Of a stretch of DNA of 64,000 bases, positions 1,983 through 2,708 are shown one piece after another (position 1 is the first letter of the stretch; each line of letters starts with the position of its first letter). The translations under genes were made by a program, and so were the position numbers. The stretch comes from Botryllus schlosseri. Its lineage: Eukaryota. The notes under the pieces are model-generated. The model worked only from the letters and a program-made list of their open reading frames with translations, did not search any database and was not told where the DNA came from. The DNA lies in NCBI GenBank assembly GCA_051294905.1, contig CM119372.1:31126001-31190000 (forward strand), read 5' to 3'.

Positions 1983-2708
1983 TTATATCTTGAGCCAGGC
2001 GTAACCTTTTTTTCTATGGAGATTATCATCATTATCCAACTTGAAACTGCTAGATATGGAGCATTTCTGTCTTGGCTCTAATTCTCGTAATCTGTTCATA
2101 AGATCCGAAAATTTTACCTCTACCGTAAACTCTCGTAACACAGTTCTGAAATTTCGCGCAAAGGTTGTACCGGATGGATAGCACCAACTGAGCTGATCAT
2201 GACTAACGGCACTTATCAGAATCGTTTTTGATTTCACTGTACGTTTATGTTTCAAAACTTCCGAAGTACCATCCGCATGCAAACGGAATTTCAAGTCGCC
2301 GGAATCACCAGAGTGACATTGAGCAAACATCAACAGGTTTTTTGTATCTCTTCGAAACAATTTCAATAGGGAACACATATCATCATCAAGTAACGGCCTA
2401 TCATAGAACACAAAACCAGAATCATTCGATTCGGGATCATTCTCCGTTGTACTATTTTTCACCGTAAATCCATGACCGACAAAATATATGAAATTTCTTT
2501 TCGCGCCACTAGAAGCCATATTTTTTATCGCTGCAGTGAAGTTCTCAAGGGTAGCACTTTCTTCTTCTAGGACTTTGATGTCAGAATCATCAAATTTGAA
2601 TTGTTCATGTAAAATTTCTCTAATGATTTCGATATCCTTGAGAGTTCCCTCATTCTTAACATAATTGACAGTACCGCGATAGCATAGTGACACGATTAAC
2701 GCATTCAT
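1983..2708 (-). CDS. Metacaspase-like peptidase (C14 family)
   Basis: Motifs ALIVSLCY..G...D, catalytic YFVGHG, LLDDDM and catalytic AQCHSG..DL follow the type I metacaspase order. TATA-like element at ~2741-2749. Confidence 0.85.
   Translation of the reverse strand: MNALIVSLCYRGTVNYVKNEGTLKDIEIIREILHEQFKFDDSDIKVLEEESATLENFTAAIKNMASSGAKRNFIYFVGHGFTVKNSTTENDPESNDSGFVFYDRPLLDDDMCSLLKLFRRDTKNLLMFAQCHSGDSGDLKFRLHADGTSEVLKHKRTVKSKTILISAVSHDQLSWCYPSGTTFARNFRTVLREFTVEVKFSDLMNRLRELEPRQKCSISSSFKLDNDDNLHRKKGYAWLKI

Follow-up and report, generated by a model that had tools for sequence, protein, structure and literature searches.

A putative metacaspase-type C14 peptidase encoded by a Polinton/Maverick-type element in the genome of Botryllus schlosseri

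The locus and its C14 gene

The region studied here is a stretch of 64,000 nucleotides (nt) of the Botryllus schlosseri genome (GCA_051294905.1, contig CM119372.1, positions 31,126,001 to 31,190,000 of the forward strand), called the window below, whose positions 1..18828 belong to a Polinton/Maverick-type insertion of 19,195 bp with its genes on the minus strand. Towards the left end of this element lies an intact open reading frame (ORF) predicted to encode a small peptidase of the C14 family, hereafter the C14 gene, which is our main subject:

1983..2708, minus strand: C14 gene, intact ORF of 241 amino acids (aa)
2739..2748, minus strand: TATATATAAG motif, 31-40 nt 5' of the C14 ATG

The protein carries the catalytic motifs FVGHG (His79) and FAQCHSG (Cys131), together with an acidic stretch, ENDPESNDSG, and LLDDDM; Pfam places Peptidase_C14 (PF00656) over residues 20-209 with an E value of 5e-10 (39.9 bits for a cut-off of 21.4). 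The frame upstream of the ATG stays open for just six more codons (247 aa) before a stop, so the protein has no prodomain. The Pro/Gln-rich or zinc-finger prodomain of type I metacaspases is absent, strand beta-1 beginning at residue 2 in the structural model presented below, and so is the long p20-p10 linker of type II, since about 20 residues separate DLKF (139-141) from the strand at 161-166; the protein is a single domain with p20-like and p10-like parts. The death and Ig domains of paracaspases are missing as well, Pfam detecting the C14 domain alone. A preliminary description of this stretch, made from its letters, had listed an intact His (GHG)/Cys (CHSG) dyad, an acidic loop, LLDDDM and the lack of a prodomain, all of which are confirmed in the 241-aa ORF. 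Upstream of the gene, TATATAAG is kept in 10 of 10 copies from both lineages of the element (see below), and this conservation makes it likely that the C14 gene has a promoter element of its own.

Sequence and fold relationships

A single-sequence search of the PDB returned Geobacter GSU0716 as best match (PDB 3bij, E 1.3e-4), followed by plant and yeast metacaspases. With a profile of the family (A2, 10 rows) run against all PDB sequences with E values up to 10, metacaspases and GSU0716 alone were matched (Yca1 at 4.1e-21, AtMC4 at 3.4e-17, C. glabrata MCA1 at 3.7e-17, AtMC9 at 3.5e-15, GSU0716 at 1.4e-14 and TbMCA2 at 4.4e-12), and no caspase, paracaspase, legumain or gingipain appeared within that limit. 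Local hhalign comparisons gave an E value of 7.6e-44 (score 294) between the family and 45 relatives with the ordinary D-x-CHSG motif, and of 2.5e-6 (score 48) between the family and 20 host caspase domains; the D-x-CHSG relatives themselves stand at the same distance from host caspases (E 2.4e-6). The caspase pentapeptide Q-A-C-x-G is absent, the C14 motif reading F-A-Q-C-H-S-G where host caspases have QACRG.

The AlphaFold2 model of the C14 protein, built on a 113-row alignment, reached a pLDDT of 93.7 and a pTM of 0.92 and has the caspase-like alpha/beta fold, with Z scores of 19-25 to metacaspases, legumains and caspases. In Foldseek, metacaspases lead (E 1e-14 to 1e-10, TM 0.68-0.77), with MALT1, legumain and caspase-9 behind at about 1e-8 to 1e-7; VIA-align gave Z scores of 21.1-25.4 for metacaspases (rmsd 2.0-3.1 over 206-225 aligned residues), 21.8 for GSU0716, about 20 for legumains and about 19 for caspases. 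Among predicted viral structures, the best matches were giant-virus metacaspases, with Fadolivirus at an E value of 2.5e-18 and a TM of 0.86. Profile, Foldseek, hhalign and Z scores thus bear out the earlier proposal of a metacaspase rather than a host caspase or paracaspase, and the structure prediction proposed along with it yielded a caspase-like fold with metacaspases on top. Taken at the level of sequence and model, these comparisons support the assignment of the protein to the metacaspase-type C14 peptidases, and not to the host caspases or paracaspases; its most fitting description would be a peptidase derived from metacaspases, within the metacaspase/orthocaspase branch.

Active site, S1 pocket and calcium site

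Conservation was counted in the 113-row alignment, which holds 13 family rows and 100 other rows, and TbMCA2 positions were mapped onto the C14 protein by offsets from the catalytic residues and by alignments (PDB hits, the 113 rows and Yca1). His79, Gly80 and Cys131 are invariant in all 113 rows, hence in all 13 of the family, and each of D25, D96, D103, D108 and D109 is present in at least 90% of the 113. In TbMCA2, the S1 pocket is formed by Cys92, Asp95, Ser156 and Asp211, the two Asp residues taking a basic P1 residue, and the calcium site by Asp173, Asp189, Asp190 and Asp220 (PMC4357240, PMC6426788). The S1 equivalents and the residue before the catalytic Cys are the following:

T22, S1 pocket, TbMCA2 Cys92: Thr in 12 of 13 family rows; Cys in 81 of 100 others
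D25, S1 pocket, TbMCA2 Asp95: Asp in 12 of 13 family rows; Asp in 97 of 100 others
V77, S1 pocket, TbMCA2 Ser156: Val in 12 of 13 family rows; Ser in 88 of 100 others
A129, S1 pocket, TbMCA2 Asp211: Ala in 12 of 13 family rows (Glu in P0012); Asp in 100 of 100 others
Q130, residue before the catalytic Cys: Glu 7, Gln 5, Ser 1 in the family; Cys 40, Ser 34, Ala 19 in the others

Three of the four S1 positions are replaced family-wide (Cys to Thr22, Ser to Val77, Asp to Ala129) and Asp25 is retained, so that D25 alone remains of the two-Asp acidic pocket of metacaspases. The preliminary description had seen A-Q-CHSG in place of D-x-CHSG; this substitution is real and shared by the family (Ala in 12 of 13 rows, Asp in all 100 others), and two further S1 changes, Cys to Thr and Ser to Val, come on top of it. 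CHSG itself is not conserved within the family, where the catalytic Cys is followed by His, Tyr or Phe. The likeness to the calcium-binding region of type I metacaspases, also proposed earlier, holds: the calcium-site equivalents D96, D108, D109 and D138 are retained in 12-13 of the 13 family rows and align with Asp residues of Yca1. On these alignments, the D-to-A change is part of a larger family-wide rebuild of the pocket in which catalytic and calcium residues are untouched.

One has to consider what such a pocket would accept. RgpB (gingipain R) holds P1-Arg by one Asp on the equivalent helix, H-alpha1 (PMC4357240). As one Asp on helix alpha-1 suffices there for P1-Arg, the likeliest P1 preference of the C14 protein would, by analogy, still be basic (Arg > Lys), in a pocket that is wider and less acidic; the replaced residues make a real shift of P1 specificity the main alternative, and a plausible one.

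Comparison with known C14 proteases

Type I metacaspases (Yca1, C. glabrata MCA1 and T. brucei MCA2) have the same fold (Z 21-25) and share the G-H-G and C-H-S-G dyad motifs, the calcium-site Asp residues and the p10-like part with the C14 protein, but they differ in their prodomain and long insertion, both lacking in the 241-aa protein, and in their S1 pocket (Cys/Asp/Ser/Asp for Thr/Asp/Val/Ala here, with Glu or Gln before the Cys here); sequence identity is just 17-24%. Giant-virus metacaspases, such as those of Fadolivirus, Clandestinovirus and Heterosigma akashiwo virus 01, are likewise encoded by viruses and match the model well (E 2.5e-18 to 6e-16, TM 0.81-0.86), and the one of Heterosigma akashiwo virus 01 is similarly small (249 aa, TM 0.81/0.79); they belong, however, to large viruses of protists and algae and not to a 19-kb integrating animal element, and identity is about 18%. 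Their role in infection is unclear (PMC10583209). Bacterial orthocaspases and small caspase-domain proteins, such as GSU0716, resemble the C14 protein in being a stand-alone domain of about 250 aa; unlike the C14 family, orthocaspases keep both pocket Asp residues even in their pseudo-variants (PMC6426788). The executioner caspase of ascoviruses is also a C14 protease of an animal virus, but a true caspase (C14A) and a weak structural match to the model (E 1.4e-5, TM 0.56). MALT1, finally, is an Arg-directed C14 protease at work in animal cells; its structural match (E 2e-8, TM 0.56-0.59) is far weaker than those of metacaspases (1e-14), its Ig and death domains are absent from the C14 protein, and the family profile does not match it.

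Phylogeny and host C14 genes

A quick IQ-TREE phylogeny was built from 62 rows, namely 10 family rows, 45 hits (the first 45 of the 200-400-aa hits P0020-P0157), 6 of 30 host C14 loci and one host paracaspase-like domain. The window protein, P0001-P0006, a lineage-B copy and P0011 fall in one clade with a support of 99; host caspases form a separate branch, also supported at 99, and the paracaspase lies outside the rest with a support of 90. Judged by its sequences, the family is apparently not nested in host caspases or paracaspases and is, by profile, a metacaspase relative. The preliminary description had expected a C14 phylogeny to separate the gene from host caspases and paracaspases and to point to a protist, bacterial or giant-virus source: the separation holds in the quick tree, which points to no donor, as the nearest non-family relatives are at most 33% identical to the C14 protein.

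Caspases are restricted to animals (PMC5756287), and the host has many C14 genes: its genome yields at least 70 C14 matches, QACRG caspases were found in at least 7 of the 30 loci read, and there is also an Ig+C14 paracaspase-like ORF. Its caspases mark the host as an animal. None of the 30 host loci read has the C-[HNFY]-S-G motif. Some host C14 genes form clusters of single-exon caspase ORFs and others are ORFs of about 580-680 aa with two tandem C14-like domains, examples being found at C8:2.35-2.40 Mb and C4:14.32-14.40 Mb (L043, L044).

Copies, lineages and selection

The C14 protein has 16 matches in the same genome, of which 14 are full length without a stop. They fall into lineage A (2 matches, 99-100% identity), lineage B (13 matches, 64-67% identity, one with a TGA) and one truncated match. 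Together with 11 related protein clusters found elsewhere (see below), these 16 matches put the C14 observation far beyond chance.

Neighbouring genes were read for 11 of the 16 copies, 2 from lineage A and 9 from lineage B. The two lineages are collinear from the polymerase to C14, with protein identities of 44-73%, and the order major capsid protein (MCP), protease, ORF, C14 is the same in 11 of 11 copies. What follows C14 differs: in both lineage-A copies, it is an IAP-like gene and then the terminal inverted repeat, and in all nine lineage-B copies, a 113-aa ORF, then a ubiquitin E2 (PF00179, E 1.6e-46) encoded by the opposite strand (in L003 at 2933-3445, minus strand) and a homologue of the window ORF 17415-17738. 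No IAP follows C14 in any of these nine.

Between lineages, the C14 genes show a pS of 0.80, which is saturated, and a pN of 0.21 over 240 aligned codons. Within lineage B, the divergent copy L003 compared with the seven other copies gave dS 0.08-0.11, dN 0.007-0.009 and omega 0.06-0.10, and the coding sequence is identical in four copies; the two lineage-A copies gave an omega of 0.19, with 7 differences. C14 is, thus, a long-standing component of this clade of elements, maintained by purifying selection and independent of the IAP.

As a side observation, the window ORF 17415-17738 (minus strand, 107 aa) is mostly 89-98% identical across lineages (59% in one C9 copy), its lineage-B homologue lying near the opposite end of the element (L004, L008, L009, L046); the lineages may, from this identity, have exchanged it. 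The E2 of the lineage-B copy at C1:36.39 Mb contains an interruption of about 2.2 kb.

Relatives in other data sets

An exhaustive HMMER search found 470 proteins at E <=1e-3 and just 16 at <=1e-10. The family accounts for 11 of 5.8 billion protein clusters, which stem from assemblies of Logan, ENA or JGI; their contigs measure 0.6-2.9 kb, save for that of the distant two-domain P0014 (9.5 kb). Non-family hits whose active site could be read by pattern nearly all have the ordinary D-x-C-H-S-G, and the nearest Atlas clusters are bacterial caspase-domain proteins of 249-272 aa. The family alignment brought up no relatives in IMG/VR or in JGI metagenomes, nor did a capsid alignment in IMG/VR; the nearest outgroup, P0025, gave nothing in 185,579 prokaryote species genomes.

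The Polinton/Maverick-type element

The bounds of the element were set by comparison with a copy on another contig that is 97-99% identical, and by comparing its two ends with each other. Its features other than the C14 gene and its upstream motif are listed below, all genes being on the minus strand:

727..1965, minus strand: IAP-like gene, three BIR domains (PF00653, E 1.6e-42)
2754..3092, minus strand: ORF of 112 aa lying between the protease and C14 genes, conserved in lineage B at 47-49% identity
3070..3528, minus strand: candidate adenain/Ulp1-like cysteine protease, 152 aa (His, Asp, Gln and Cys-Gly recognized by eye; no Pfam match)
3525..4802, minus strand: candidate major capsid protein, 425 aa (Pfam DJR-like_dom PF21738, E 0.017, below cut-off)
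4852..6816, minus strand: three presumed virion-module ORFs (123, 244 and 294 aa), collinear in both lineages
6928..7914, minus strand: integrase, with rve core (PF00665, E 4.2e-12) and C-terminal chromodomain (E 9.9e-7)
8718..9401, minus strand: Pox_A32-type packaging ATPase (PF04665, E 2.5e-10)
9340..13268, minus strand: candidate protein-primed family B DNA polymerase region in three frames (11376-13268, 10500-11357 and 9340-10671)
18088..18372, minus strand: single-BIR ORF, 94 aa, adjoining the right terminus (PF00653, E 1.4e-7)
18501..18828: right terminal inverted repeat of 328 bp, matching the left one at 99.1% identity
18829..18834: target-site duplication, 6 bp, CATGAC, its other copy standing immediately before the left terminus

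The left terminal inverted repeat lies outside the window, 366 to 40 bases before its base 1, and the termini of the element read AG...CT. Terminal inverted repeats, AG...CT ends and a perfect 6-bp target-site duplication identify the element as a Polinton/Maverick-type insertion, and a recent one. The Polinton setting assumed in the preliminary description is supported by the 328-bp repeat, the 6-bp duplication, the rve and chromodomain integrase and the A32 ATPase. Adintoviruses and Polintons have the same terminal inverted repeats, 6-bp duplication, rve integrase and A32-type ATPase, to which candidate PolB, capsid and protease genes are added here. IAP and Bcl2 homologues are known as adintovirus accessory genes (PMC8502044).

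Some of these genes call for comment. In the polymerase region, exonuclease and polymerase motifs were recognized by eye, and the nearest Atlas clusters carry PF03175 in 14-37% of their members; Pfam gave no match in this region, and PDB sequence searches with two of the polymerase ORFs gave 0 hits. The same two frame junctions recur in lineage-B copies that are about 60% identical (L045, L047, L050), and the sequences suggest that the three-frame polymerase is a conserved feature and not random decay. The AlphaFold2 model of the capsid candidate, computed from three sequences, is too poor to use (pLDDT 42.6). In the IAP-like gene, which is the last before the left terminus, the first ATG stands at residue 9 of the listed ORF; Pfam detects no RING domain in its product.

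Proposed role and alternative explanations

We consider it probable that the C14 gene encodes a conserved C14 peptidase of the metacaspase branch, belonging to an animal Maverick and putatively active, calcium-regulated and devoted to host manipulation. The protein would be an endopeptidase that is active and regulated by calcium, expressed from a TATA-type promoter of its own while the element replicates; it would probably belong to a host-manipulation gene set at the genome end, beside IAP/BIR genes in lineage A or the ubiquitin E2 in lineage B, and would cut host proteins, possibly viral ones, beyond the control of host caspase regulators. A bolder version of this proposal is one that we put forward tentatively and with some doubt: the S1 pocket as rebuilt in a deep-diverged clade of animal Mavericks, with Thr, Asp, Val and Ala and a Glu or Gln preceding the Cys, might confer a P1 specificity unlike that of characterised C14 enzymes, and the protein might be the first metacaspase-type protease shown to act in animal cells, evading caspase regulators and cutting cell-death or immune-signalling proteins alongside the IAP/BIR or ubiquitin-E2 genes.

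Several points weigh against this interpretation. The canonical second S1 Asp is missing according to the alignments, so one defining feature of metacaspases fails, and for this reason we do not file the C14 protein as a canonical metacaspase. The approximately unbiased (AU) test did not reject a tree that joins the family with host caspases and the paracaspase (p 0.62), and this tree scored 3.66 log-likelihood units better; the family could, thus, be a deep separate branch and not one nested among metacaspase-like proteins, and long branches are involved in placing the outgroup attachment. The capsid, protease and polymerase assignments come from weak or by-eye evidence, and the window copy, with its polymerase in three frames, may not be autonomous. 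As for expression, four bulk RNA-seq runs with the same species label, of which 6-13% each was read, were mapped on window 1-19000 and gave 28, 8, 4 and 37 reads, most fitting in part only; none of the four had a read over window 1-4438, where the IAP, C14 and protease genes lie along with the greater part of the capsid gene, and the element looks silent in these four samples.

This silence, like the polymerase in three frames, would fit a functionless passenger decaying in dead insertions, which we nevertheless hold to be highly improbable, as 14 of the 16 matches have a complete open frame, omega within lineages lies at 0.06-0.19 (pN 0.21 for pS 0.80 between them), and four identical coding sequences, 99.1% identical terminal repeats and a perfect target-site duplication speak for recent activity. 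The outcome of the AU test, which does not reject a tree with the family on the same side of a branch as the host C14 genes, and the abundance of the latter (at least 70 matches) could in turn be explained by a captured host caspase or paracaspase that diverged fast inside the element. We give this hardly any credence: the QACxG motif is absent, a PDB search with the family profile brought up neither caspases nor paracaspases up to an E value of 10, hhalign gives 2.5e-6 to host caspases and 7.6e-44 to metacaspase-like proteins, the metacaspase calcium-site Asp residues are present, and host caspases form their own branch (99) in the quick tree. The replacement of three out of four S1 residues raises the question of a non-catalytic decoy or scaffold, whose rebuilt pocket would bind a host factor without cleavage; pseudo-orthocaspases do exist in bacteria (PMC6426788). 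It is very unlikely to be the answer, given that each of the 13 family rows has His79, Gly80 and Cys131 and that known pseudo-variants show the opposite pattern, the dyad being lost and both pocket Asp residues kept (PMC6426788).

Two other explanations grant the protein its catalytic activity and give it another partner. In the element's own morphogenesis, C14 might cut proteins of the element, as proposed for the host metacaspases recruited by coccolithoviruses: in both lineages it closes the MCP-protease-ORF block, and a giant-virus review mentions predicted metacaspase cleavage sites in viral proteins (PMC10583209). Such a processing role seems unlikely to us, for a candidate adenain-like maturation protease, recognized by eye, already sits directly after the capsid gene. 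The other partner is the three-BIR IAP, which the preliminary description had paired with the protease and which would bind and control C14 or be its substrate. IAPs regulate caspases, and the two genes are indeed same-strand neighbours, with 17 nt between them, in the window copy as well as in its 97-99% identical sister copy, that is, in both lineage-A copies. BIR-caspase recognition, however, relies on caspase-specific features that the C14 protein does not have. In all nine lineage-B copies read, moreover, C14 is kept without an IAP, the 113-aa ORF and the ubiquitin E2 standing there, so the protease is conserved independently of the IAP. IAP homologues are also known already as stand-alone adintovirus accessory genes (PMC8502044). 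The adjacency claimed earlier is, thus, real, and the pairing is unsupported as it was stated; we regard a protease/regulator pair as quite unlikely. A co-fold of the IAP (residues 9-412) with the C14 protein scored 0.00 and, having been run without controls, is evidence neither way.

Position among known viral proteases

Metacaspases of giant viruses and caspases of ascoviruses are already known (PMC10583209), and reviews place metacaspases in every group except animals (bioRxiv 10.64898/2026.09.23.753419; PMC5756287). A full-text literature search found no paper joining polinton and metacaspase, though supplements could still list such a gene, and the papers that it found joining polinton and caspase were all unrelated. 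The word "caspase" is absent from the accessible text of the adintovirus paper (PMC8502044) and from the part of its supplement covered, and the accessible part of "Widespread horizontal gene transfer among animal viruses" (PMC11071296) makes no mention of caspase.

The C14 family is a real, undescribed variant of the virus-encoded metacaspase-like proteases: a metacaspase-type gene present at 16 places in an animal genome, borne by virus-like elements and under selection. With it, virus-encoded metacaspases reach beyond the giant viruses of protists to small integrating viruses of animals, and a protease joins the anti-apoptotic accessory genes already known in adintovirus-like elements. Since the Asp found in 100 of 100 non-family rows is replaced while the dyad and the calcium site remain, the family can also be seen as a natural experiment on C14 specificity. 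At 241 aa and without a prodomain, the enzyme should be an easy target for expression and crystallography.

Other features of the window

Between 727 and about 15,200, minus-strand genes follow one another closely, and beyond this part ORFs are sparse. The element carries BIR genes at both ends, and the C-terminus of the IAP (727-800) has a hydrophobic stretch, recognized by eye as a possible tail anchor. Between the IAP stop and the left terminal inverted repeat lies an inverted repeat of 141 nt (93%) at 47-187 and 549-689; the stretch of about 660 bp that contains it has no counterpart in the sister copy on contig C11 and may, from its structure, be a small foldback or an insertion resembling a miniature inverted-repeat transposable element. 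In the ORF-poor host part of the window, a NACHT-domain ORF of 445 aa was found at 37847-39184 on the minus strand (E 5e-14).

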